From Escherichia phage AV126, in the sequence record OR352956.1: a stretch of DNA of 64,000 nucleotides; one strand, 5' to 3'. Of this stretch, positions 43,838-61,297 are shown one piece after another. Both the position numbers and the translations under genes were made by a program. Position 1 is the stretch's first letter, and the number at the start of each line of letters is the position of its first letter. The notes under the pieces are model-generated. The model saw only the letters and a list, made by a program, of their open reading frames with translations. It searched no databases and was not told where the DNA came from.

Positions 43838-44011
43838 ATGACTAAACGCACTGATTTTAAATGTATGCATTGTGGGAAATCTTTTGGGGATCATCAAGCT
43901 CGCACATTCAACTGTCCACGTAAAGGTCGCGGAAATTTTAAAGGTTTTAATCCCGCACATGTTTATTCTCCAGATTACGATAAGCCAGAAGAAGAAAAAT
44001 TTGTTATTTAA
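43838..44011 (+). CDS. hypothetical basic Cys-containing protein (57 aa)
   Basis: ATG 43838 after AAAGGAG; CMHCG....CPRKG. Confidence 0.4.
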   Translation: MTKRTDFKCMHCGKSFGDHQARTFNCPRKGRGNFKGFNPAHVYSPDYDKPEEEKFVI

Positions 44012-44023
44012 TAAGGAGGTCAT

Positions 44024-44305
44024 ATGGAACTCGTTCAAGAATTGTATAATGCTTTAGGAGCAAAAGGAAAGGATTGGCCCGAACATGCGCTTATCGCTAT
44101 AAGAGACTCCGATGGTGAGATTAAGTTCTCTAGTGTAAGTAAAGAACACATCGTAGAAAATGAGTTTGGTATTTACATGCGTGGAACTTATTGCTTATTC
44201 AACACCAGAATGGTAGAAGCCCCTGTTATTGAGTGTGGAACAAAAGATTGCCCCACAATCGTAACAAAATCTGAATATGAGAAGTTTTTCTACGCTAAAG
44301 CTTGA
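44024..44305 (+). CDS. hypothetical protein (93 aa)
   Basis: AAGGAGG SD; followed by terminator at 44350. Confidence 0.55.
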   Translation: MELVQELYNALGAKGKDWPEHALIAIRDSDGEIKFSSVSKEHIVENEFGIYMRGTYCLFNTRMVEAPVIECGTKDCPTIVTKSEYEKFFYAKA

Positions 44306-44349
44306 CACAGAAACAATACTATAGGATAGTGATTCTATCGTAGCAATAG

Positions 44350-44372
44350 AACCCGCTTCGGCGGGTTTTTTC
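44350..44372 (+). terminator. rho-independent terminator
   Basis: AACCCGCTTCGGCGGGTT + TTTTT. Confidence 0.85.
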
Positions 44373-44396
44373 ATATCTGTAGCAATAGGAGGTCGT

Positions 44397-44627
44397 GTGT
44401 TAAATAAAATCGAAGAAGGTTGTATGGCATTTTTGGTAGATAACCCGTTTCCGTTTATGGTTAAGATCCATGTAGGAGAGTATTTAGGTAATGACGAATG
44501 GGATTGTAGTATCAATAGCGAAATGCACTACTACCAACCAACAATACTTAAGACGGATCAAATGGCGCGTATCACAGTAGAGGATGAATTGATCATTGAG
44601 TTATACGAGAGAGCACTGCACAAGTAA
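44397..44627 (+). CDS. hypothetical protein (76 aa)
   Basis: GTG start after AGGAGG (or ATG 44424); last plus-strand gene before convergent terminator. Confidence 0.45.
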   Translation: MLNKIEEGCMAFLVDNPFPFMVKIHVGEYLGNDEWDCSINSEMHYYQPTILKTDQMARITVEDELIIELYERALHK

Positions 44628-44670
44628 GCTAGAACCCACCTAAATCGAACAGAGACGCTCTAAAATAGAA

Positions 44671-44698
44671 AAGGCACCCACTTGGGTGCCTTTGTTTT
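44671..44698. terminator. bidirectional rho-independent terminator at convergence point
   Basis: AAGGCACCCACTTGGGTGCCTT flanked by A-run upstream and T-run downstream; between last plus gene and last minus gene. Confidence 0.75.
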
Positions 44699-44969
44699 AT
44701 TCTTCGTTAGATTGCGTTTCAGATGCGTTAAATTCGGTTTCAGTACAACTTGCTAGGTAACTTATATTTTGCATCACTACAACTACAGGTGTTTGAAGTT
44801 TATCTTCTAGCCCCGCAGCCACTTGAGCCAAGGCATTATCAATATTTGATTTCCTAACACCTGTTCCATGTCCTGTTGCCAAGTAAAGATTACCTTCCCC
44901 TTTTTGTGTAGCATTAGCAAAGTAGTAAACGTAATGTGCAAGGTAGTAATCACGGATTTCTTCAGTCAT
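44697..44969 (-). CDS. hypothetical protein (90 aa)
   Basis: Last gene of leftward block; AGGAGAA SD. Confidence 0.5.
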   Translation of the reverse strand: MTEEIRDYYLAHYVYYFANATQKGEGNLYLATGHGTGVRKSNIDNALAQVAAGLEDKLQTPVVVVMQNISYLASCTETEFNASETQSNEE

Positions 44970-44986
44970 TTTATTCTCCTGATAAG

Positions 44987-45006
44987 AAAGGGGCCGAAGC
45001 CCCTTG
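44987..45006 (-). terminator. intercistronic GC hairpin with UUCG loop (minus strand)
   Basis: Minus sense AAGGGGCUUCGGCCCCUUU after Sir2 stop, then SD and ATG of next gene. Confidence 0.45.
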
Positions 45007-45012
45007 AGTGGT

Positions 45013-45813
45013 TTATTTGTTTAAATGGTCTTCAACCATTTTGATAAAGCCTTCATCACTGAAGACTGTTCCTGCTTTCTCTCGGTAGACAAGCACTCCA
45101 CGTTCTTCGTAGAGAGTTTGTTCTACAAAATTCAAACCTGGGTTAACTACTACCATCTTAACCCCAATATTCAGGGCAGGGAAGAGTTCCCAGTTGAAGT
45201 TGATTACTTGGTTAGAGCAGCCTACAACGATAACCATATCTTGTGATGTTAGTTGATCCAGTTTGTGATACATGTCTGTGTAGAGTGGTGCATTCTCACC
45301 AAAAAACACCACATTAGGCTTCACATATTTGTAATCGTCTACATCAATAGCTGCGTAACCCACATCTTTGATAATTTTGTTATCAACAACAACTTCTGGC
45401 AAGAAGCCATGAACGTGCAATATTTCTTCTCTATCGATTCCAGCGCGTTCTAATAGATCGTCAACGTTAGTAGTAATGTTAATAATCCTTTCTGCACCGT
45501 ATTTTTCGAACCATTCTCCAATCTGAAGATGTGCTGGATTCGGGTCAACTTTCTCTAATTCCACGCGACGTTTATTGTAGAAGTCGTGAGTTTTACGGTA
45601 GAGGTTATATCCTTCCACATCTAAGCCACCCATAGCATCAGGAATACCCTGTTCTTGCTGATAACCGTCACGGAAGTTGAAAATGTCACAGACTTCTGTT
45701 AAATCGTATTCATCCCATAATGCCTTTCCAGAATCTGTTTCTGTGCGAAATGTTTGGATTCCGCTGTCAGCACTTAGTCCCGCACCACTAATAAAATATA
45801 CACGTCTTGGCAT
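45013..45813 (-). CDS. Sir2-family NAD-dependent protein (sirtuin-like, 266 aa)
   Basis: GAGLSADSGIQTFR (Rossmann NAD motif), TTNVDDLLERAG...HVHG (catalytic His), PNVVFFGE, IVVGCSNQV; no CxxC zinc-ribbon pairs. Confidence 0.75.
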   Translation of the reverse strand: MPRRVYFISGAGLSADSGIQTFRTETDSGKALWDEYDLTEVCDIFNFRDGYQQEQGIPDAMGGLDVEGYNLYRKTHDFYNKRRVELEKVDPNPAHLQIGEWFEKYGAERIINITTNVDDLLERAGIDREEILHVHGFLPEVVVDNKIIKDVGYAAIDVDDYKYVKPNVVFFGENAPLYTDMYHKLDQLTSQDMVIVVGCSNQVINFNWELFPALNIGVKMVVVNPGLNFVEQTLYEERGVLVYREKAGTVFSDEGFIKMVEDHLNK

Positions 45814-46286
45814 TATTCGTCCTCCTCAAATGGATCATAAGAATCATATTCGTAAGTATCATCTTCTGAAAATTCTACTTCGAAATAAATATCAAACTCT
45901 GCAAACAGACGTAGGATGTTAGACATGCTATAATAATTATCGTAGGCAGATTCAGCTTCATAGTAAACATAAAGCAAATGGTTAGCCTTATCATCTTCCA
46001 AATATTTCCCGTCTGCATACGCATAGTCTGCATATGCTTTACCTGCATCTTCTACAAGAGAACGATCAAGCAGAGTAGGAAATGGTTTCTCTTTTTCTTT
46101 TAGTTTGCTCACCAACCAATGTGCAATATCATTCCATTCTGCATCCATACCACTAAAGCAACTTGCTTCTTCTCCAAAAGAAGCTTCTCCTAAATCGCCA
46201 CTAATACGAACAACATTAGATGAATTATAGCCACACGTTTCACAATCAGAGTAACTATTATGCACATTGACATTTACTTGAAACAT
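45813..46286 (-). CDS. hypothetical acidic protein (157 aa)
   Basis: ORF; start overlaps Sir2 stop. Confidence 0.5.
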   Translation of the reverse strand: MFQVNVNVHNSYSDCETCGYNSSNVVRISGDLGEASFGEEASCFSGMDAEWNDIAHWLVSKLKEKEKPFPTLLDRSLVEDAGKAYADYAYADGKYLEDDKANHLLYVYYEAESAYDNYYSMSNILRLFAEFDIYFEVEFSEDDTYEYDSYDPFEEDE

Positions 46287-46344
46287 ATTCCCTCCTATAA
46301 AAGAAAAGCCCCCTGAAACAGGAGGCTTTGTTCAGATGTTGGCA

Positions 46345-46998
46345 CTATACCAGACTTTGTAGGTATTTGTCAAGGGCTTCTTGATCACCTTGGCAAACAT
46401 AGCAACGGAAGTCTTGAGCCGAAGGTTGTTTATTTTCATCCCAATCCCAATAAACGTTACCTTTATAACGTGAACCAGGGAACTCAAAAGAGGCTGTATG
46501 TGTAATGTACCCTGGGCCACCAGTGAAATCACAGAATGAAAATTGAGGGTATGCCGCCTTTACTGCCTCAATAAACCAAGCTTTACGATCTAAGGCTTCA
46601 TTGATGCTATATGCATGTCTCTCCATTTCTTCCCAAGTTTTCCAGACGCTTCTCTCATCAGGAGAGAAGACAAGCCATTCTGGAAGGTAGAGAGTGTCAT
46701 AGTAATCATCATATTCGATCTCGGATGCGCACGAAGCTGACTCCTCCAACTTTGAGTAGTCAAAAGCGGAATATACCCACCAACCATCTTCCAGCAAGGC
46801 TTTGATAGGGACAAAACCTTTATCTGCATATTGATCAAATTGTTTGACACGGTGGCTTGTGCAGTCTTCAAACTCACATTCTAAACGATATGCACCTTTT
46901 CGACGAGCCTCAAGACCGTGTGTACTGAAAATAACAACACTTCCTTCACCATCATTACGATCTACTTGATAAGCAACTACTGGTTTTGAATTTGACAT
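46345..46998 (-). CDS. hypothetical protein (217 aa)
   Basis: ORF in co-oriented block. Confidence 0.5.
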   Translation of the reverse strand: MSNSKPVVAYQVDRNDGEGSVVIFSTHGLEARRKGAYRLECEFEDCTSHRVKQFDQYADKGFVPIKALLEDGWWVYSAFDYSKLEESASCASEIEYDDYYDTLYLPEWLVFSPDERSVWKTWEEMERHAYSINEALDRKAWFIEAVKAAYPQFSFCDFTGGPGYITHTASFEFPGSRYKGNVYWDWDENKQPSAQDFRCYVCQGDQEALDKYLQSLV

Positions 46999-47681
46999 TA
47001 TTTCTCCTTATCTAGAAGATTGTTAGACAAAAACACTGCACGAGCAAAACCACGTGCGGTTAGTGATCTAAGTTGTTTTGTTTTTGCACTGGCTCCGCCT
47101 AAGCTTTTCCAACCCCAGAAGCAGCCTATATGATCTACTGGTTTCTTCACTGGTTGAACAAAACCATTGCCGTGCCAAATACAAGTTTTCTTTGTATACC
47201 CATCACGGGTAGGCATTTTAGGATGAAAGCTTCCTTCCTCTTCAAACAAATACCCACCATACTCATAAGGATCAAAGTAAAAATCGGGTTTACGCCATAA
47301 GGTTGAAAGTTTACCTACTGGGTTTTCAATCATCCAAGGAACATTATATTTGTTACCCAAAGCTTCCACTACACGAATATTAGCTAAAGCTTCGTCTAAT
47401 TCCTCTGTGCTGCGTTCGTGTTTGCTACCACTACCTGCTAACATAGTGCAAGGTGGAAATCCAAAAATAATATCGGGTTTAGGTATTCCATGATCTTCAG
47501 GGTTGAATGTAGAATCTATCCAAGCATTCACATAGGTTATGTTTGGGTGTTCCATCCTAACCTCGTATTTACCGTGGTCCCCTTCATCAGCGTTTACACA
47601 AAAACACTTGTGACCTGCTTCGGCATAACGTAACACCATGATCCCAGATCCGTCAAACATAGACAAAACTGTTTTACTCAT
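46998..47681 (-). CDS. C5-methyltransferase-fold protein (about 227 aa)
   Basis: ATG 47681 after GGAGGGG; FDGSG (motif I-like), GFPPCT (motif IV-like Pro-Cys), ENPVGK (ENV-like); no obvious target-recognition domain. Confidence 0.45.
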   Translation of the reverse strand: MSKTVLSMFDGSGIMVLRYAEAGHKCFCVNADEGDHGKYEVRMEHPNITYVNAWIDSTFNPEDHGIPKPDIIFGFPPCTMLAGSGSKHERSTEELDEALANIRVVEALGNKYNVPWMIENPVGKLSTLWRKPDFYFDPYEYGGYLFEEEGSFHPKMPTRDGYTKKTCIWHGNGFVQPVKKPVDHIGCFWGWKSLGGASAKTKQLRSLTARGFARAVFLSNNLLDKEK

Positions 47682-48087
47682 TACCCCTCCATTCAAGACA
47701 AGCCATAACTTTACGCCAATCACTTTCTGTAAGAAAAATCTCGTTTGCTTTCTTCCACAAATCTAGATCGTGAAGGGTTGGAATACGATATGTTAGTTCA
47801 CAGAATCTATGTTCTTCTTCTGTAATATAACCAAAATGCAAAGCCACATCGTGAAACCAACACCAACCATGCATCTCTCGAACAACATGATCATGTTGAG
47901 ACATTGTTTTATGACGTAAACCTAACCAACAAGGAACAGATACTTTAGTAGTCTTTAATCTGTGATCAACAGTATTAGAGTATTCAATAATAGCTATCAA
48001 TTTCAATCGTGCTTTTTCTAAATCCTCATGCGGCACTTTGAAATAACTTTCTGAAAGATATCCACACATATTAATAACCTCCTTCAA
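47674..48087 (-). CDS. hypothetical protein (137 aa)
   Basis: ORF overlapping neighbours. Confidence 0.5.
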   Translation of the reverse strand: MKEVINMCGYLSESYFKVPHEDLEKARLKLIAIIEYSNTVDHRLKTTKVSVPCWLGLRHKTMSQHDHVVREMHGWCWFHDVALHFGYITEEEHRFCELTYRIPTLHDLDLWKKANEIFLTESDWRKVMACLEWRGNE

Positions 48088-49012
48088 AAGGCTTAACTAC
48101 ATGTTGATTAGCTTTAAAACGTTCAACATAGTCGTTTTCACCCATGTTTTCATATAGCTTAGTAACAACATAAAAGTTCTCCCAAGCATATTCCCTAAAC
48201 CAACCACTAGTGATAGATGTGCAAACTTTAGATAAAGCCATCATAAAACTTTGCTTAGGGGTTGGACCTCCGATCTCTTCACCGAAAGGAATTTGTGAAC
48301 GTTCCAAAGCCAAAACACACGCTTCTTCATAAACACCTAACAGGCGCACATGTTTTGGTTGAGCAAAAAACTTTTCTTTGCTGGTCATAACTTCACTTCC
48401 ATCTTTCATATAAGATTTATATGCTGGAGCATCCATTACTGCGATTGCTTCATGAATAGAGTCATGATCATAAACATACGGAACCTCATCACCTTTAAAG
48501 AAGTCTTTACTTCTCACGTTTAAGTTTGGATGAGAGTAAGTATATGTTTCTTTCTCACGCAACTCATAAATACTCTTAAGATTTTCTGGGATCTTTGCGC
48601 CTAGTGATCGCATGAAATGAATATCTTTCATAGTTTTAAAGAAGTAAGGACTATCCTTTTTAAAACGATGACTCATTTTAAGAAGGTAGAGCACATCTAA
48701 AGGAGCAACAACGTGTCCAGCGTAAGTTCGACGAATATCATCACAGTCTTCACAATAACTAATCAAAGCTTCTGTGCTATTTCCTTGAGAAGCAATATCG
48801 TATTCCAAATGTGCACCCGCTATCATTTTGACATGGCCCTTGTTCCCTTTACGCTCTACAAGTTCAACAAACTCATCTTGAGAGAACATTTTTGATAATT
48901 CTTCCCACTCTTGTTCTGTACAGAGATAATCTAAATCTACACAAGGGCGATACAAGTCTTTTCCCATGTCCATAGCATGAATTTGTAATGCACGGCTACC
49001 AATTAACACCAT
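48071..49012 (-). CDS. hypothetical protein (313 aa)
   Basis: ORF with upstream promoter (TTGACA-17-TAAACT) at 49043-49071; weak nucleotidyltransferase-like GS...DLD pattern. Confidence 0.5.
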   Translation of the reverse strand: MVLIGSRALQIHAMDMGKDLYRPCVDLDYLCTEQEWEELSKMFSQDEFVELVERKGNKGHVKMIAGAHLEYDIASQGNSTEALISYCEDCDDIRRTYAGHVVAPLDVLYLLKMSHRFKKDSPYFFKTMKDIHFMRSLGAKIPENLKSIYELREKETYTYSHPNLNVRSKDFFKGDEVPYVYDHDSIHEAIAVMDAPAYKSYMKDGSEVMTSKEKFFAQPKHVRLLGVYEEACVLALERSQIPFGEEIGGPTPKQSFMMALSKVCTSITSGWFREYAWENFYVVTKLYENMGENDYVERFKANQHVVKPFEGGY

Positions 49013-49042
49013 AATATTTCTCCTCTATTGGTTGATAGGTTA

Positions 49043-49071
49043 AGTTTATCAAGCTTCCAGATTTCTGTCAA
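49043..49071 (-). promoter_or_regulatory. sigma70-like promoter (minus strand)
   Basis: Minus sense TTGACA - 17 nt - TAAACT, directly after terminator 49072-49095 and upstream of ORF 48071..49012. Confidence 0.55.
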
Positions 49072-49095
49072 TAAAAAACCCGCCGAAGCGGGTTA
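49072..49095 (-). terminator. rho-independent terminator (minus strand)
   Basis: Minus sense AACCCGCTTCGGCGGGTT + TTTTTT immediately after stop of ORF 49103..49375. Confidence 0.85.
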
Positions 49096-49102
49096 TTATT
49101 TA

Positions 49103-49375
49103 CTAACACATTGAGGAAGAAGAGATCCAAACACCTCTTGTGGTTAAACCATTTTCATCCAACTCTACACCATAATCTTCACAAATGAAATCAATATAGT
49201 GATCTGCGGCTGGCGTTCCTGTAGGGTAATAAGTTTCTCCGTTGCCGTAGTCACCTATCCAAGCTTGTTCCTGAAACTGTTCACAAAGTTCTTCGATTTC
49301 CTTACGAAACTTTCTTTGTGCTTGTTCCATCTCTTTAACTTTCTTTTTTATCAGCAGTTCGCCTTCAGACTCCAC
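49103..49375 (-). CDS. small acidic protein, W-x-SSS-C family copy 1 (90 aa)
   Basis: C-terminal ...GVWISSSSMC; followed by strong terminator. Confidence 0.5.
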   Translation of the reverse strand: MESEGELLIKKKVKEMEQAQRKFRKEIEELCEQFQEQAWIGDYGNGETYYPTGTPAADHYIDFICEDYGVELDENGLTTRGVWISSSSMC

Positions 49376-49384
49376 AATCTCTCC

Positions 49385-49603
49385 TTAACAGCTACTACTG
49401 TGCCAAACGCCTTGAGAATTAACGACGAAACCATCATCACCTTCACCATAACAAGAAGAGGATTGCCAATCTTCAAAACAGATTGCGTTATCTTCTAAAC
49501 TAAGACCAAAACCAGCATCTTCAGCTTCTTTTGTAAGTTCGTCCACTAAAGCCATAATAGCTTGGGCTTTTTCAGTTAATTCTTCAACATTACGATCACT
49601 CAT
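49385..49603 (-). CDS. small acidic protein, W-x-SSS-C family copy 2 (about 72 aa)
   Basis: ATG 49603 after GGAGG; internal EDWQSSSC and C-terminal GVWHSSSC. Confidence 0.5.
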   Translation of the reverse strand: MSDRNVEELTEKAQAIMALVDELTKEAEDAGFGLSLEDNAICFEDWQSSSCYGEGDDGFVVNSQGVWHSSSC

Positions 49604-49917
49604 TAGTATTTCTCCTCCGGTTGGAAAACTGAACGACAAGCCCACATACTAGCTTCTTTTAAATGTTTAATAGCACAACGGATTTGATCAATACGCTCGT
49701 ATGCAACATCTAATTCTTTTTCTGTGCCGTCAAAAGACCCATGATATGCTTCACAATACTCTTCCTCTAAAGCTTTGAAGATTAAACCTAAACGCTCTTC
49801 TGCATCTTTAATAGCGTTAACCTTGCCAATCTTATCGTCGGTATGCGCCTTATAACCTTTGATATCTTCGATTCCCACTTTACCTCCTATTAACAACTTA
49901 AAGAAGATGGATGCCAA
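49603..49917 (-). CDS. hypothetical protein (104 aa)
   Basis: ORF; TAATG overlap with downstream. Confidence 0.5.
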   Translation of the reverse strand: MASIFFKLLIGGKVGIEDIKGYKAHTDDKIGKVNAIKDAEERLGLIFKALEEEYCEAYHGSFDGTEKELDVAYERIDQIRCAIKHLKEASMWACRSVFQPEEKY

Positions 49918-50087
49918 TTTGTCCCAGTATTCTCATTTTCATCTTCTGGATCATAATAACCACCCATCCCATATTCAGGGGAGAAATGGAAACCTTCTCC
50001 AGTCTCGTCTGCTAACTGCTCTGCTTCCGCTAAAGCATCATAAGCTGCTTTTACGGCTTCTTCTACTGTTTTAAACTTGGTCGTCAT
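49890..50087 (-). CDS. small acidic protein, W-x-SS-C family copy 3 (65 aa)
   Basis: C-terminal ...TNWHPSSLSC. Confidence 0.45.
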   Translation of the reverse strand: MTTKFKTVEEAVKAAYDALAEAEQLADETGEGFHFSPEYGMGGYYDPEDENENTGTNWHPSSLSC

Positions 50088-50361
50088 AAAATTTCTCCTC
50101 TCCTAAAGACATGGTGACATGAAATGCACGATATGTAAATTCGTTGTCCGTTGTATTTGAATAAAACTCAAATTGAACAACACCGTCTTGAGAAGACAAA
50201 TACATGCCAATTTGAACTGTACCTTCTGGTACTAGGTAAGCATACTCTGGGCGTAGTGTTACATTGTAAAAATAAAGTTCACCAACACCCATTTCATCCC
50301 AAGCTTCCCAAGCGGTAACGAAGTTACTTTCAAAACTTGTTACTGATCCGAACTCTGCCAT
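50071..50361 (-). CDS. hypothetical protein (96 aa)
   Basis: ORF in co-oriented block. Confidence 0.5.
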   Translation of the reverse strand: MAEFGSVTSFESNFVTAWEAWDEMGVGELYFYNVTLRPEYAYLVPEGTVQIGMYLSSQDGVVQFEFYSNTTDNEFTYRAFHVTMSLGEEKFYDDQV

Positions 50362-50852
50362 AAAACCTCCTCAATTTTGTAGTTTGACTCCATCTCCAAC
50401 ACATTTCCACGAACGTCTCTCCGAAGAAAGGCATAAGCTTTATTAGGTATTGTAGACTCATATTTAACCATATCTGGCACAGCAAAAGATACTACTACTC
50501 CTTCTGGGCTTCTGTCAAGAGCCTTATTAATATTTCTAAGGATATCGTTAGCCAAGATTTCTGCCAATTCTCCAAGAACAGTTTCGGTTATATCTTTATA
50601 CCCCATTAAATATTTGTTAATATCTTTCATCTCTGCATTGTTCAGAGTATAGTCTAAAGGATAGAAATTCAAAGCGGAGTCACTTTTATGTGTCCACATG
50701 AAATGTACCCGATCCGAGCAGAATCGTAACCCTCTACGAAGAATGTCTTCTACAACAGGGAGAATTTCTTTTGTCACATCATTAACCATGTTGTAATCTA
50801 AGATTTCTGCCAAGTTTGTTCTTTGTTCACCACGTTTACGTTTAGGAATCAC
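50340..50852 (-). CDS. hypothetical protein (170 aa)
   Basis: ORF in co-oriented block. Confidence 0.5.
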   Translation of the reverse strand: MIPKRKRGEQRTNLAEILDYNMVNDVTKEILPVVEDILRRGLRFCSDRVHFMWTHKSDSALNFYPLDYTLNNAEMKDINKYLMGYKDITETVLGELAEILANDILRNINKALDRSPEGVVVSFAVPDMVKYESTIPNKAYAFLRRDVRGNVLEMESNYKIEEVLWQSSDQ

Positions 50853-51423
50853 TTGTTATTGCCCTCATTACCAAAGGTCGTAGAAAATCATAAATCTCTT
50901 GTTTTGTTTTCCCACGAATGTTTAAACAAGGAACATTATTTGCTTTAGCTATCTTCCAAGCCGTAGCTGTTCCGCCTTTTGCATCTCCGTGTTTATCAGT
51001 ATCGGCACAAGCCAACAAGAAACATGATGGAGCAGGATTCTCCAAATCTTTACCTAACACCTGATGCACATTACGTTGGTGCAATTTTCTAGCGCCCTGC
51101 TTAAGCTTTTCATAAGCTGGGTGAACATCTTTGATCCATTGCACAGAGATAGCATAGTTCATTGTATCTGGTTTTGCAAGAACAATAACATCACCTGGAA
51201 TCTGATTACCTTTGAAATTTTCCCAAGGTACATAAATCTCCTTGTTAGTAGGATTTTCAGACTCTTGGACACCTGTTTCAAAAGCAGAATCACTACCCTC
51301 TGCCTTCCCAGACCTTAATTTAAACCCAAGGTTTGAAAGCCATTTCCCTATGCCTACCATCAAAGCCCACTCTTCTTCAGATATGTCTCTACTTCCAACT
51401 CCCGTATAGAACAGTTCTGCCAT
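50842..51423 (-). CDS. SLOG/DprA-like Rossmann-fold protein (about 193 aa)
   Basis: ATG 51423 after GAGGTGAT; TGVGSRDIS...RSGKAEGSDSAFETG resembles GxGSR / SGGAxGxD motifs of DprA/LOG-like folds. Confidence 0.45.
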   Translation of the reverse strand: MAELFYTGVGSRDISEEEWALMVGIGKWLSNLGFKLRSGKAEGSDSAFETGVQESENPTNKEIYVPWENFKGNQIPGDVIVLAKPDTMNYAISVQWIKDVHPAYEKLKQGARKLHQRNVHQVLGKDLENPAPSCFLLACADTDKHGDAKGGTATAWKIAKANNVPCLNIRGKTKQEIYDFLRPLVMRAITSDS

Positions 51424-51430
51424 AATCACC

Positions 51431-51739
51431 TCAACAAGTAATTTCAAAAGGTGTATAGGGTTCCGTATTTCTCATGATCCAAGGACTGCTAGGATTGCTC
51501 GGATCATAAGGACCAAAAGGTTTTATGGTAGGTTGTGTCTCTTTCTTCTGAATCTCTTCAAAAATACGACGAAGTTCAGAATATTCTTGATCCACCATAA
51601 GATTCGGTGCATCTGATTCTACAGCTTGCAGGTTATCTTCCTTAAAAATAATCTCTCGAACAAGATTAACATCTTCTGTTTCTAAGATAACTTCTTTACG
51701 GATATTACCTACACTTTGAATAATTGTAATCTTATACAT
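51431..51739 (-). CDS. hypothetical protein (102 aa)
   Basis: ORF; ATGA-type coupling. Confidence 0.5.
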   Translation of the reverse strand: MYKITIIQSVGNIRKEVILETEDVNLVREIIFKEDNLQAVESDAPNLMVDQEYSELRRIFEEIQKKETQPTIKPFGPYDPSNPSSPWIMRNTEPYTPFEITC

Positions 51740-52482
51740 TAATCCTCCTCAAGAGTTGAATAAAATTGAAGACCACCGTCCATATCGAAATAAGCAAATG
51801 TTAAGTTATTATTGAACACAGATCCAGTATCCATATAAACACGATTCGCATTGATAATAGGTGTTTTTACATAAGAGTGTCCATGAAACACATAGTCCAC
51901 ACCCATCACAACAGGAAGTTTCATTCCCTCTTTAGCACAGTCCACCATATCTCTGTCCCACATAAGTGCTTCAGCAAAACGGTTTTCCTGTGTTTTTGTC
52001 ATCTTCAAAGTGTATTCTGGAATATCTGTTACAGGGAGATATTCCAAAGAAGATGGATACCCACCATGAATAAACGCAAGTTTCATGCCTCTGTAGTTAA
52101 CAATGAGAACAACAGGTAAATCTTCTGTCATCATTGCTAAGGCTGTAGCTCCTTCTTCACCACATTCTTCAAGGACTGTATATCCTCCATTTTGATACCA
52201 ACACTCGAAGTAGCTACGATCTCCTTCCAGCATACCTTTAATCATCATGTCTTCATGATTTCCACGAATAGCATAGCGGTTGTGTTTACGAGTAAATTCT
52301 AAAACACAACGAAAGTTTTGCTTTCCACGGTCAGTAAGATCTCCTAAAGATACAACTACATCTGTATCTCGGATACCTAACTTTGCCTTTCCTTTTTCAT
52401 ACAAATTATAACAACCGTGTAGATCTCCAATTATAAAAAGATCTTGATCGCTTTTAACAGTAATTTCTCTATGTATGATCAC
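51739..52482 (-). CDS. Ser/Thr protein phosphatase (calcineurin-like metallophosphoesterase, 247 aa)
   Basis: IIGDLHGC, GDLTDRG, RGNHE metallophosphatase motifs. Confidence 0.8.
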   Translation of the reverse strand: MIIHREITVKSDQDLFIIGDLHGCYNLYEKGKAKLGIRDTDVVVSLGDLTDRGKQNFRCVLEFTRKHNRYAIRGNHEDMMIKGMLEGDRSYFECWYQNGGYTVLEECGEEGATALAMMTEDLPVVLIVNYRGMKLAFIHGGYPSSLEYLPVTDIPEYTLKMTKTQENRFAEALMWDRDMVDCAKEGMKLPVVMGVDYVFHGHSYVKTPIINANRVYMDTGSVFNNNLTFAYFDMDGGLQFYSTLEED

Positions 52483-54098: not shown

Positions 54099-54608
54099 TT
54101 AAACAAAATAAAATGGTTGAGAGAGGCCCAAACGATTCTTTGGGTCGTATACATACCAAGCGTATGCTGTCTTATCTGTTCCACCTGCAACAAACGAAGG
54201 CCGTTCTGAAAGAACTATAAGGTTTGTCGGTGGATTCTTTTGATGGAACTCTCGTCGTTTCTTTGACTCCAAGAAGCCCAACCGAAGAAGATAAATACAA
54301 ACATCCGCCTCTTTTAAGCTCTTTTCCAAGAACTCCATTGCTAACTTAAATGGAGGGTTTGTGATTATAATGTCGGGACGATTTTCCCACTCGTGACTAA
54401 AATAATCCTTACCTTCTTCAAGTTCACAATATTCTGAACCTTCAGGAAAATGGCGATAAATCGCTTCAGCTTCACCTCTGCAAGGTTCTGCAAAAACCCA
54501 ACCTTCTTCCTTTAGATTTTTGAAATCTATAACACTAAACAAACTGTTGATTGCTTTTTGCGGTGTCGGATAATAATCGCTCGTTGGGCGATCATAATCT
54601 AATGCCAT
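54099..54608 (-). CDS. small methyltransferase-like protein with NPPF motif (169 aa)
   Basis: DIIITNPPF matches motif IV (N/D-PP-F/Y) of amino-methyltransferases; short. Confidence 0.45.
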   Translation of the reverse strand: MALDYDRPTSDYYPTPQKAINSLFSVIDFKNLKEEGWVFAEPCRGEAEAIYRHFPEGSEYCELEEGKDYFSHEWENRPDIIITNPPFKLAMEFLEKSLKEADVCIYLLRLGFLESKKRREFHQKNPPTNLIVLSERPSFVAGGTDKTAYAWYVYDPKNRLGLSQPFYFV

Positions 54609-57758: not shown

Positions 57759-58019
57759 TTACTCCGCAATTTGAGCCATGAGATCACGCAGTTCGGTAAA
57801 ACCGCCTACGTATGTTACCTCCCCGTTCACTTCAGACAGAATTTGTGGAAATGTGCGTGGAGGAACTCCGGTAAGATCAACAACTGTTTTAGTCATTGAT
57901 TCTAAATCGTAGTCTTGGTCAAGACTTAAATATTCAAACTGTTTATTGCGCATGGTTAATAGTTGTTTTGACATTTCACAAAATTGACAGTTAGGTTTAC
58001 CAAAAATTACAAATTCCAT
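57759..58019 (-). CDS. glutaredoxin-like thioredoxin (NrdC/NrdH-like, 86 aa)
   Basis: N-terminal active site GKPNCQFC (CxxC) in glutaredoxin-fold-sized protein; GGAG SD. Confidence 0.7.
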   Translation of the reverse strand: MEFVIFGKPNCQFCEMSKQLLTMRNKQFEYLSLDQDYDLESMTKTVVDLTGVPPRTFPQILSEVNGEVTYVGGFTELRDLMAQIAE

Positions 58020-58861
58020 TACCTCTCCTTATTAAGTAATACTGCTAAAGACTGTTCAATACCTTTATTTAAATCTGATTTTGTAAGATAGTGACTGGTT
58101 ACTAGTTGTGACTTCACCGGACGTGCTGCTGGAGCATTATAGGTTGAAGCTGATACCGCCGATATCTTAACAGGTTCTGGCATCTGTGTCAAGATCTTTT
58201 CCGCAAACTCCGCCCAAGAAATAAGATGGCTTCCTGCAAAATGGTAAGTCTTAACAGATCTTGACCAACCTGTTTTTAATACTTCAAAAATAGCTTCTGC
58301 TAAATCTGGGGCATATGTTGGACAAGAGAACTGATCAGCAACAATAATAAAATCACGTTGTCCATCATTATAGCGAGACAACATGGTTTTTAGAAAGTTA
58401 TTTCCAAATTCGCTATATACCGAGGCTGTTCGAATAATATATGCATTTGGGTTAACTCCTCGCACCATTTTTTCACCAAGTTCTTTCGTATACCCATAAT
58501 TGTTTATTGGGTTAGGTGTAGTATCTTCAAAAATAGGATGAGAATAATTAAAAATATAGTCTGTAGAAATATGCACAAAATCAATTTTAAGTTTGCTGCA
58601 CACTGCCGCAATATTTGCAGGTCCATACGCATTAACAGCCAAAGCAGTAGCAAATTCATGTTCTGCTTTATCTACCGCCGTATAAGCGGCGCAATTAATA
58701 ACACCATCTACATAATCTTCAACAATAGCGTTTCGCACAGCTTCAAAATTTGTAATATCTACACGTTCTTTAGGATAAATTAAAGATACATTTGCAGGGG
58801 CAACTTTACGTAAAGCTTGTCCCAGTTGTCCATTACCACCCAATACCAAATATGTTAGCAT
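58019..58861 (-). CDS. rmlD: dTDP-4-dehydrorhamnose reductase (RmlD, 280 aa)
   Basis: N-terminal Rossmann LVLGGNGQLGQAL; size and operon position after rmlC. Confidence 0.75.
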   Translation of the reverse strand: MLTYLVLGGNGQLGQALRKVAPANVSLIYPKERVDITNFEAVRNAIVEDYVDGVINCAAYTAVDKAEHEFATALAVNAYGPANIAAVCSKLKIDFVHISTDYIFNYSHPIFEDTTPNPINNYGYTKELGEKMVRGVNPNAYIIRTASVYSEFGNNFLKTMLSRYNDGQRDFIIVADQFSCPTYAPDLAEAIFEVLKTGWSRSVKTYHFAGSHLISWAEFAEKILTQMPEPVKISAVSASTYNAPAARPVKSQLVTSHYLTKSDLNKGIEQSLAVLLNKER

Positions 58862-59421
58862 ACACCCTCGCTACGTAACTGTTGAAAAGATTTAGCCATT
58901 GCATCTTTTGTTGATAGGATAGGTTTAAAACCTTCATCAAAAATCATATCGAAGCCCCAATCGATCCCTATATCAGGATCATCCCAACGTAAACTTTGTT
59001 CACTAGAAGAGTCGTATGGAGTTGTGCATTTGTATTCAAAGATAGCATCCATACTCAAAACTATAAAACCATGTGCCAAACCAGGTGGAAGCCAAAACTG
59101 CGTATGGTGTCGTGCACGAAGAACAACACCGTCCCAAGCACCGTAAGTAGGACTATCTTTACGTAAGTCTACAGCGAAATCCAATACTTCACCACTTACA
59201 CAACGAACAAGCTTACCTTGCGGATTATTTGTTTGAAAGTGCATTCCTCGCAAAACACCGAAGTTTGATTTAGACATGTTATCTTGAACGAAAGTTTGTC
59301 TACCAATAATATCTTCGTATTTTTGTTCATTATATGTTTCTAAAAAGAAACCACGGTCATCTTTATAAACGTCTGGTTTGATAATTACCGCACCTTCAAT
59401 TTTTGTCTTTTCTACTTTCAT
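58855..59421 (-). CDS. rmlC: dTDP-4-dehydrorhamnose 3,5-epimerase (RmlC, about 188 aa)
   Basis: ATG 59421 after GGAGAGAAA; cupin-type RmlC sequence (GVLRGMHFQ...); ORF-track 5' extension overlaps rmlA. Confidence 0.75.
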
Positions 59422-60296
59422 TTTCTCTCCGCTAATTTGAGTAGGTATTGCCCGTACTCTGTTTTCTTCAGTGAGTTTCCATGATATACCAAAGTCTCTA
59501 AAGAAATCCACCCTTTTTTGAAAGCAATTTCTTCCAGGCACGCAATCTTCAACCCTTGACGGTTCTCAATAGTCTGCACGAATTGACCAGCTTCCATCAG
59601 ACTGGCGTGTGTTCCTGTGTCAAGCCAAGTAAATCCTCGTCCGAGAACTTCCACTTGTAACTTCCTGTCTTCGAGGTAGCTGCGATTGATATCTGTGATC
59701 TCCAGTTCTCCCCGCGCGGAAGGGGTTACTTCTAATGCACGTTCAACAACAGAGTTATCATAGAAATACAAACCTGTGACAGCATAATCTGATTTAGGAT
59801 TTTCAGGTTTCTCTTCAATAGAAATAGCTTGACGATTACTCCCAAATTCAACCACACCGAATCGTTCAGGATCTTTCACCAAATACCCGAAGATACAAGC
59901 TCCGCCACAAACATCTACCATCTCACTGGCGTTAATCAGTAGTTTACCAAAGCTTTGTCCGAAGAATAGGTTGTCACCTAAAATAAGAGCAACAGAGTCT
60001 TCTCCGATAAAATCTTTACCGATGATGAAAGCGTCCGCAAGACCTCGTGGCTCGGATTGGATTGCGTAAGTGAGTTTTATCCCAAACATAGACCCATCTC
60101 CGAGAAGATACTCAAAGTCTTCCTGATCGCCTGGTGTGGTGATGATTAAGATATCCTTAATGTCAGCCAACATCAATACCGATAAAGGGTAGTAGATCAT
60201 GGGTTTGTCATACACAGGGAGCAATTGCTTGCTCACACTGCGTGTTACCGGATGAAGGCGGGTTCCACTTCCTCCCGCCAAAATAATACCTTTCAT
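59418..60296 (-). CDS. rmlA: glucose-1-phosphate thymidylyltransferase (RmlA, about 292 aa)
   Basis: ATG 60296 after GGAG; [18 protein letters not shown]...VEFGSN...VTGLYFYD typical of RmlA. Confidence 0.85.
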
Positions 60297-60304
60297 AGCC
60301 CTCC

Positions 60305-61297
60305 TTAAATCTTCCCACTCCACCATTGAGGGTTGTTTAAGTACCATTCAATCGTTGAGTAGAGATCTTGTTCAAATGTAGAGTTTGCACTCCAACCCAG
60401 TTCAGACTCTATTTTAGAAGGATTGATTTCATAACGCAAGTCATGTCCTTTACGATCTTCAACAAAAGTTATCAAGTTGGAAGAAGGGTAGGTTCCTGCT
60501 TCTGGATGTACAGCATCCATGTAGTCACAAACCATATAGATGATCTCCATATTGGTTTTGGGATTACGTGTTCCAACATTATACGTTTGACCTGGTTCTC
60601 CACCTGTTGCCACTTGAAGAATAGCTCGCGCATGATCCTCAACAAAAAGCCAGTCTCGCACCTGATCGCCTTTACCATACACCGGAATCTCTTTATTCGT
60701 CAAGATACTTGTGATGATTTTTGGGATCAGCTTTTCTGGATGTTGATAAGGTCCAAAGTTATTGGAGCAGTTGGTTATCACAACAGGTAAACCGTAGGTA
60801 CGGTACCAAGCTTTCACAAGATGGTCAGATGCTGCCTTAGACGCACTGTACGGGCTTGAAGGGGCATAAGCTGTCTCTTCGGTAAAGGGAACGCCAGAGT
60901 CTGCCATATCGCCGTACACTTCGTCTGTGGAGACGTGTACGAACATCTTCAGTTTATTTTTTGGGAGGAGCCTTGCAGCTTCCAATAAATTGTATGTGCC
61001 AATAATATTGGAGTCGATGAAAACTCGTGGATTCTTGATAGAATTATCCACATGACTCTCTGCCGCTAAGTGAATGATGAAATCGGGATTGCACTCTACT
61101 ACTAAACTTTTGACCTGGGTTTCGTTTGCCAAATCTGTTATGCTTAGTTTAACGTGAGTGATATCGCCTACATTCTCAATATCTGCTGCATAGCCCATCT
61201 TATCAACGACAAAAACTTCGTTATTGGGATCTTGACAAAGAGAGCGCACCACGGCACTCCCAATAAAACCAAGACCACCTGTTACCAGATAGCGCAT
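60305..61297 (-). CDS. rmlB: dTDP-glucose 4,6-dehydratase (RmlB, 330 aa)
   Basis: [16 protein letters not shown], ...HLAAESHVD..., YSASKAA (YxxxK) SDR motifs. Confidence 0.85.

Follow-up and report, generated by a model that had tools for sequence, protein, structure and literature searches.

A probable stand-alone DNA cytosine-C5 methyltransferase of the phage Dcm-like family (PHROG 757) in Escherichia phage AV126

The Dcm-like enzyme of phage K42 and its homologue in AV126

Phage K42, a relative of KarlJaspers (Bas06), carries a 711-bp gene for a 'Dcm-like C5 cytosine methyltransferase' that was lost or disrupted in four of four escapers from the retron Ec86 (10.1101/2023.08.16.553469; the preprint later appeared as Wang et al., Cell Rep 2024;43:114857). 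Expressed alone, K42 Dcm was toxic only together with Ec86 and raised the 5-methylcytosine (5mC) content of the multicopy single-stranded DNA (msDNA), as determined by LC-MS (mass spectrometry coupled to liquid chromatography). The C82A/E128A/K175A/K176A substitutions gave neither toxicity nor the increase in msDNA 5mC, and K175 and K176 were assigned as substrate-binding residues (10.1101/2023.08.16.553469). Here we describe a homologue in Escherichia phage AV126 (OR352956.1), of which a stretch of 64,000 nucleotides, referred to below as the window, was analysed. The gene is a 684-bp open reading frame (ORF) for 227 residues (Table 1). By analogy with the K42 enzyme, its product is very probably a stand-alone, S-adenosylmethionine (SAM)-dependent DNA cytosine-C5 methyltransferase of the phage Dcm-like family (PHROG 757).

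The KarlJaspers gene (bas06_0055 of MZ501090) is exactly 711 bp long and encodes 236 amino acids. Its product is 50% identical to the AV126 protein over the full length (E = 1e-71), and residues C82, E128, K175 and K176 of K42 Dcm align with C78, E119, K164 and K165 of the AV126 protein. Because of this relationship, the AV126 protein falls into a family for which there is direct evidence of DNA C5-methylation by a lone enzyme, and by the same analogy we infer that it is enzymatically active. KarlJaspers Dcm likewise has the FPPCT, ENPVGK, KKT and RSLTPRGFARAVF elements. The two proteins are of similar length (236 and 227 residues). However, KarlJaspers Dcm stems from a Drexlerviridae siphovirus rather than from a Phapecoctavirus myovirus, and has PGWAKTGG between motif VIII and the C-terminal block, where the AV126 protein has FWGW and LGG. 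This segment (residues 172–203) is conserved in the close clade and different in KarlJaspers, so the specificities of the two enzymes need not match.

Fold, motifs and family of the protein

An AlphaFold2 model calculated from 46 homologues was of high confidence (predicted local distance difference test score, pLDDT, 88.9; predicted template modelling score, pTM, 0.87). The best 50 matches of this model in a Foldseek search of the PDB were all DNMT3A, DNMT3B or DNMT3C (best E = 2.4e-8). The confident model and the DNMT3 matches together settle the fold: as modelled, the protein has a compact form of the C5-cytosine methyltransferase fold and carries a catalytic Cys. The first-pass annotation, which was made from the letters of the DNA alone, had also entertained a thymidylate-synthase-like enzyme acting at the nucleotide level, and the fold search, with its DNMT-like rather than thymidylate-synthase-like result, speaks against that idea. 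The catalytic domains of DNMT3A and DNMT3B are about 16–19% identical to the AV126 protein; in contrast to it, the DNMT3 enzymes have kept motif X and the motif VIII arginines, and they target CpG and form an oligomer with DNMT3L. The AV126 protein is ~60 residues shorter than the DNMT3B catalytic domain (291-residue chain), which is itself unusually compact among the solved C5-methyltransferases that were matched.

A scripted translation confirmed what had been read at first pass, namely a 227-residue ORF with FDGSG, GFPPCT and ENP in canonical order. FDGSG (motif I) aligned with FAGIGG in E. coli Dcm and with FSGAGG in M.HaeIII. A conserved Asn30 lies at the end of strand 2, the usual site of the ribose-binding acid; in the wider family, 94% of members have Asp there. 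In motif IV, FPPCT aligned with the PCQ of M.HaeIII and E. coli Dcm, with Thr instead of Gln after the Cys. The model places a low-confidence catalytic loop after motif IV (pLDDT < 50 for residues 85–87) and a long helix at residues 92–111. Between motif VI and the HPKMP insertion there is a conserved PxxYFxPYEYGG element. The QxRxR sequence of canonical motif VIII is absent from the protein; the corresponding strand carries the conserved YTKKT (K164 98%), and K164 and K165 may be equivalent to the QxRxR arginines. The motif IX-like block reads RSLTARGFARAVF in AV126 and RRLTPRECARLMGF in E. coli Dcm. Of 13 positions compared with motif IX in E. coli Dcm and M.HhaI, 7 agree, and a greedy hhalign run placed it, with low confidence, on Dcm residues 399–412. 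E. coli Dcm, M.HhaI and M.HaeIII combine PCQ, ENV, RxR and GN(A/S)V, whereas the AV126 protein combines PCT, ENP and KK and has no recognizable GN(A/S)V; its terminal helix may occupy the place of motif X.

The protein matched PHROG 757 ('DNA methyltransferase') from end to end (residues 1–225 of 227, E = 1.8e-84), and all invariant blocks of this family (FDGSG, CT, ENPVGK, YTKKT, RSLTPRGFAxAVF) are present, with Ala209 for Pro as the single deviation. We found 870 homologues at E ≤ 1e-3 in a protein database clustered at 90%, and in a 50% representative library the family profile matched 1,894 clusters, of which 773 reached E ≤ 1e-10. According to tblastn the protein is encoded in 1,487 phage records, 64 of them at least 99% identical. 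The family is widespread among phages of enterobacteria and commonest in the 40–52 kb genomes of Drexlerviridae, Webervirus and Kagunavirus. Many of the records label the product 'hypothetical protein', others 'Dcm-like C5 cytosine methyltransferase' or 'C-5 cytosine DNA methylase'.

Conservation was assessed in 111 diverse full-length members that are 30–58% identical to the query. E119 and P138 are invariant in this set, and the residues conserved to at least 90% include C78, N120, P121, Y162, K164, T166, W169, P177, R205, P209, G211 and A215. Y162, K164, T166 and W169 reach 98–99%, and Cys78, Glu119, Asn120 and Pro121 95–100%. The first-pass annotation had allowed for the motifs being coincidental. 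With 870 homologues, 1,894 matching clusters and catalytic residues conserved to 95–100%, the motif pattern is not due to chance. It had also singled out PCT in place of PCQ; the motif is indeed there, but it is not peculiar to this gene. FPPCT is the commonest form of motif IV, found in 66 of the 111 members, with the Cys at 99% and the Thr at 89%. In the closest clade, Cys-Thr is invariant and is frequently preceded by Asp or Ser. PCT is therefore a family trait, in which the Cys rather than the Pro is constrained.

The gene is of a kind already known. Positions 44000–52000 of the window are 98.7% identical to Escherichia phage nieznany (Phapecoctavirus) and 94–98% identical to the other Phapecoctavirus genomes listed, phAPEC8, ZCKP1 and ukendt among them. 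RefSeq has the same gene of nieznany as gp068, names its product 'DNA methyltransferase' and adds the remark 'Dcm [Salmonella phage FSL SP-101]'. The novelty implied at first pass is thus not borne out: the gene is already called a DNA methyltransferase or Dcm in Phapecoctavirus reference genomes, it belongs to PHROG 757, and the family has been characterized in a T1-like phage. The mode of DNA reading by a protein without a target-recognition domain (TRD) or recognizable motif X, its specificity and a possible sensing of Phapecoctaviruses by Ec86 concern the whole family rather than this locus in particular.

Some homologues stood out in the searches. Inteins characteristically occupy functionally critical sites, and a metagenomic homologue of 548 residues (P0264) has one (Hint_2 + LAGLIDADG_3) exactly before the motif IV Cys (FGFPP/CFTGDTLVL...IVHN/CTNLSV, slashes marking the junctions), so that the methyltransferase nucleophile doubles as the intein +1 residue. 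Another homologue, of 348 residues (P0214), has a C-terminal HNH_2 endonuclease domain (residues 250–298) and may be a methyltransferase–nuclease fusion or the result of a homing-endonuclease insertion. Apart from this intein and the HNH fusion, Pfam scans of the longer homologues gave no informative partner domain. Close homologues also occur in 36 records labelled 'Campylobacter phage', with 47–62% identity in the three listed (MG065640 A14b, 47 kb; MG065666; MG065661). These records are unannotated, and their genome sizes are like those of the Drexlerviridae or Vequintavirus phages that infect enterobacteria, so that mislabelling or contamination with such phages may be behind them.

Target sequence, role and alternative readings

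A further homologue that bears on the target sequence is gp74 of Klebsiella phage KP36 (NC_029099, 47552–48244), which is 59% identical to the AV126 protein over the full length. Like the AV126 gene it stands alone among small genes, in KP36 near a DNA helicase gene; its motif IV is FPSCT, with the Pro before the Cys lost, and its other motifs are as in the AV126 protein. KP36 DNA contains 155 CCWGG sites and its resistance to EcoRII was complete, whereas every enzyme used in that study cut the DNA of phage KP34, which has no gene for a methyltransferase (PMC3620542). In that 2013 work no phage cytosine methyltransferase was recognized and the resistance was credited to host Dcm (PMC3620542). 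KP36 does encode a family member, contrary to the 2013 statement; the gene was overlooked because Pfam and NCBIfam miss the family. In the retron system, a change of either C of the msDNA CCTGG abolished defence (10.1101/2023.08.16.553469). By analogy with these two systems the target of the AV126 enzyme is probably of the CCWGG class, and a role in anti-restriction can be inferred.

E. coli MG1655 is dcm+. Since only the phage enzyme raised 5mC and triggered Ec86 in this strain, there must be a difference between it and host Dcm, be it in site, efficiency or substrate. In the MG1655 trigger experiments, msDNA 5mC was low without the phage enzyme (10.1101/2023.08.16.553469). We found no direct phage methylome for this family in the literature. 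The window contains 90 CCWGG sites (observed/expected ratio, O/E, 1.14), so this word is neither depleted nor enriched, and GATC is also at expectation. CCWGG at expectation fits protection by methylation but proves nothing, as k-mer statistics cannot assign a specificity. Other words are depleted in positions 1–64000: CCGG (O/E 0.35), GGCC (0.34), CCSGG (1 vs 10.5 expected) and CTCAG/CTGAG (8 vs 45.5). These look like avoidance of restriction sites that methylation cannot protect.

Several observations weigh against a DNA C5-methyltransferase with a CCWGG target. With 11.6 bits (E = 0.18), the match to the Pfam profile PF00145 stayed below the cut-off of 22 and covered the N-terminal 89 residues only; among the 111 diverse members, one reached E < 0.01 with this profile. 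Family profiles built from 46 sequences (A1) and from the 111 diverse members (A2) found no methyltransferase among the PDB sequences, and an NCBIfam scan and phmmer against PDB sequences gave sub-threshold hints at most. Alignment of the A2 profile with the single sequence of E. coli Dcm by hhalign was not significant (E = 0.11). The same alignment did pair FDGSG with FAGIGG, FPPCT with FPCQ and ENP with ENV, all in one register, and a control against the Dam-like enzyme of KarlJaspers was worse (E = 0.43, 26 columns). In favour of the assignment, weak N-terminal matches to canonical C5-methyltransferase profiles were obtained with phrog_363 (E = 5e-4), PADLOC MTase_II (E = 1.2e-4) and DruM 'DNA cytosine methylase' (E = 3e-4). 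The architecture is also unusual. There is no recognizable GN(A/S)V of motif X, the protein ending 10 residues past the C-terminal block, and there is no real TRD, a variable domain of about 80–250 residues that C5-methyltransferases carry between motifs VIII and IX. The remark made at first pass that the protein is far shorter than typical enzymes and has no obvious TRD holds, with 32 residues in this place compared with roughly 100–115 in M.HhaI and E. coli Dcm; the same difference, together with the sub-threshold PF00145 score, sets it apart from type II C5-methyltransferases in general. Ala209 replaces a residue that is Pro in 118 of 121 relatives. As for the target, the CCWGG specificity in the K42 work was taken by analogy with host Dcm (10.1101/2023.08.16.553469). 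Host Dcm confounds both the K42 system and the KP36 digest, the two results being compatible with CCWGG. Finally, in the BASEL study the Vequintavirinae and relatives, with which Phapecoctavirus was covered, were exceptionally sensitive to the restriction-modification (RM) systems tested; any protection from restriction is therefore narrow.

By analogy with M.HhaI and DNMT3, the FDGSG loop would bind SAM and the target cytosine would be flipped into the pocket. The thiolate of Cys78 would then attack C6 while Glu119 of ENP protonates N3, and the methyl group would be transferred to C5. The flipped base and the backbone may be held by K164 and K165, in the role that the arginines of motif VIII have in canonical enzymes. 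The enzyme, expressed from a block of small non-structural minus-strand genes, is predicted to act alone on double-stranded DNA and to methylate the replicating phage DNA. Methylation of CCWGG could protect from EcoRII-type restriction, and the same activity would be a liability where it is sensed by retron Ec86/Eco1.

A genuine DNA C5-methyltransferase could have a main role other than protection from restriction, such as gene regulation or replication, a function against another defence, or methylation of a short or relaxed site unlike CCWGG. We consider this unlikely, although it would agree with the RM sensitivity described above, with the lack of a pattern in BASEL linking the methyltransferase genes of Drexlerviridae to restriction resistance, with the difference between the phage enzyme and host Dcm in MG1655 and with the reduction of the TRD to 32 residues. 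Orphan phage methyltransferases are classically anti-restriction, and the EcoRII resistance of KP36 DNA set against the cleavage of KP34, as well as the loss of defence upon mutation of either C of the msDNA CCTGG, argue for the conventional role. It is a bolder and rather doubtful proposal that this ~225-residue lineage represents the smallest functional architecture of a DNA C5-methyltransferase, devoid of TRD and motif X and with lysines for the motif VIII arginines, which reads DNA unlike the solved enzymes and whose specificity is perhaps not simply CCWGG but, for instance, a shorter site, a relaxed one or the outer C of CCWGG. A specificity of this kind, unlike that of the host, would explain why Ec86 is triggered in a dcm+ host although host Dcm does not trigger it.

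The remaining alternatives concern other chemistry or other substrates. The genes of the dTDP-rhamnose pathway (rml) in the window had suggested a link to base hypermodification at first pass, and a preprint on phages from Danish wastewater offers the speculation that hydroxymethylated bases might be glycosylated with rhamnose. The homologous stretches of nieznany that were examined have no product annotated as a hydroxymethylase. The rml genes belong to other transcription units and are separated from the methyltransferase gene by ~10.5 kb and by one or more terminator-like sites. For KarlJaspers and KP36, the annotation of the stretches examined names no rml gene, and the family occurs mainly in siphoviruses of 40–52 kb. 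We therefore rejected a functional linkage on the grounds of distance and phyletic distribution. The same evidence bears on the idea that a group other than methyl is transferred, for example carboxymethyl from carboxy-SAM (Cx-SAM), as a handle for a hypermodification perhaps tied to rml. CmoX of Synechococcus phage S-B43 is such a DNA cytosine C5-carboxymethyltransferase (PDB 8YF3; PMC12783734). Its motif IV is SPPC, so that it shares PPC with the FPPC of the AV126 protein, and the E. coli host makes Cx-SAM via CmoA. However, CmoX has an Arg for the motif X Asn and is usually adjacent to cmoA and cmoY, whereas no motif X is recognizable in the AV126 protein; the annotation of the homologous nieznany stretches examined, which correspond to about three quarters of the window, names nothing like CmoA or a ligase; and the product of the K42 homologue is 5mC by LC-MS. 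Transfer of another group is thus very unlikely. Slightly more remote is an RNA (tRNA or rRNA) m5C methyltransferase like Dnmt2 or NSUN/RsmB. Dnmt2 does have a DNMT fold and acts on tRNA, and the phage genus has 10–11 tRNA genes (Danish wastewater preprint), but motif VI is the ENP with Glu of DNA enzymes, not the TC of RNA m5C enzymes, and the homologue methylates the DNA stem–loop of msDNA. Neither the catalytic Thr-Cys in motif VI nor the RNA-binding N-terminal domain of the NSUN/RsmB/Fmu enzymes was found. Hardly conceivable is a pyrimidine modifier of the thymidylate synthase or dCMP hydroxymethylase type that feeds hypermodified bases to the DNA. It would draw on only the Pro-Cys nucleophile and the nucleotide-metabolism genes elsewhere in the window (ribonucleotide reductase small subunit, rml), and it is contradicted by the SAM-binding glycine loop, by the action of the homologue on polymeric DNA when expressed alone, and effectively by the fold search; neither a ThyA fold nor its folate-binding site was found.

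With a DNA C5-methyltransferase as the preferred reading, the gene has some practical consequences. Pfam and NCBIfam miss the family, and many deposited genomes accordingly still say 'hypothetical protein'. Phapecoctaviruses are used in phage therapy and biocontrol, and the enzyme predicts that their DNA is marked with 5mC, a point to consider in sequencing, in cloning and with regard to type IV restriction. A possible sensitivity to hosts that carry Ec86/Eco1, such as BL21, is a further prediction.

Gene start, neighbouring genes and minor observations

The features of the locus are collected in Table 1. The ATG at 47681 is taken as the real start because GGAGGGG precedes it by 2 nucleotides, because it overlaps by 8 nucleotides with the stop of the upstream gene (ATGAGTAA), because homologues begin there, and because the RefSeq gene has 684 bp. 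An alternative GTG start at 47723, which would give 241 residues, was rejected since homologues and RefSeq begin at the ATG. The stop codon of the methyltransferase gene overlaps the start of the next gene (TAATG), with AAGGAG within the final codons.

Table 1. Sequence features of the methyltransferase locus and of other genes named in the text (window coordinates)
Feature	Position	Strand	Remarks
CDS, probable 227-residue Dcm-like minimal DNA C5-cytosine methyltransferase	46998..47681	-	stop codon included
Shine-Dalgarno-like GGAGGGG	47684..47690	-	2 nt (TA) upstream of ATG; read from sequence
Motif I, FDGSG, SAM-binding glycine loop, residues 9–13	47643..47657	-	script translation; nearly invariant in close relatives
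Motif IV, GFPPCT, residues 74–79	47445..47462	-	script translation; nucleophile Cys78 at 47448-47450
Motif VI, ENPVGK, residues 119–124	47310..47327	-	Glu119 corresponds to ENV glutamate; in register with ENV of E. coli Dcm
Family-specific insertion with conserved HPKMP, residues 145–161	47199..47249	-	between motif VII-like and VIII-like elements; conservation tables and model secondary structure
Motif VIII-like strand YTKKTCIW, residues 162–169	47175..47198	-	K164/K165 where canonical enzymes have QxRxR
32-residue segment in place of the TRD, with FWGW and LGG, residues 172–203	47073..47168	-	between motif VIII-like strand and motif IX-like block
C-terminal block LRSLTARGFARAVF, residues 204–217	47031..47072	-	resembles motif IX; family consensus RSLTPRGFAxAVF
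DUF7277 + DUF7275 gene, 313 residues	48071-49012	-	candidate unit, first gene
phrog_16551 gene	47674-48087	-	candidate unit, second gene
phrog_8514 gene, 217 residues	46345-46998	-	candidate unit, directly downstream of methyltransferase gene
Promoter-like site TTGACA-17-TAAACT with TG extension	49043..49071	-	consensus scan; possible start of four-gene unit
Strong terminator-like hairpin, 11-bp stem + T tract	46305..46329	-	consensus scan; after 217-residue gene, possible unit end
RmlD	58019-58861	-	dTDP-rhamnose pathway
RmlA	59418-60347	-	dTDP-rhamnose pathway
RmlB	60305-61297	-	dTDP-rhamnose pathway

Small genes on the minus strand form a long block around the gene. Together with three companions, which match phrog_2141, phrog_16551 and phrog_8514 and are without known function, it may form one unit of four genes with overlapping stops and starts. 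This grouping is tentative because the promoter scan did no better than chance, the total of promoter-like sites in the region being equal to the shuffled expectation; terminator-like sites numbered 7, compared with 3.5 expected in shuffles, and a further hairpin of this type lies upstream of the 313-residue DUF7277/DUF7275 gene. By tblastn, the three companions are not beside the methyltransferase gene in PaulSarasin, KarlJaspers, a Vequintavirus, a Klebsiella jumbo-like myovirus or the RB49-like Krischvirus Sf20, nor are they in KP36, for which the annotation table alone was consulted. Genes for a restriction endonuclease or for Vsr are not adjacent to the methyltransferase gene. The orphan methyltransferase proposed at first pass thus fits the context, as there is no restriction partner, the neighbours are unconserved in five lineages, and the homologue makes 5mC alone. 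A split enzyme with its TRD in a coupled neighbour was considered and rejected, given the absence of the neighbours in the five lineages and the ability of K42 Dcm to work alone.

Elsewhere in the window, a gene of the Sir2 family follows this group (45013-45813), and the ORF at 58855-59541, between the rml genes, may encode RmlC. A second small methyltransferase-like gene (54099-54608, minus strand) encodes 169 residues, among them IITNPPF, a motif of the kind usual in amino-methyltransferases that act on N6-adenine or N4-cytosine. Its product looks too short to hold a recognition domain, and the homologous gene of nieznany, gp051, is annotated 'DNA methyltransferase'.

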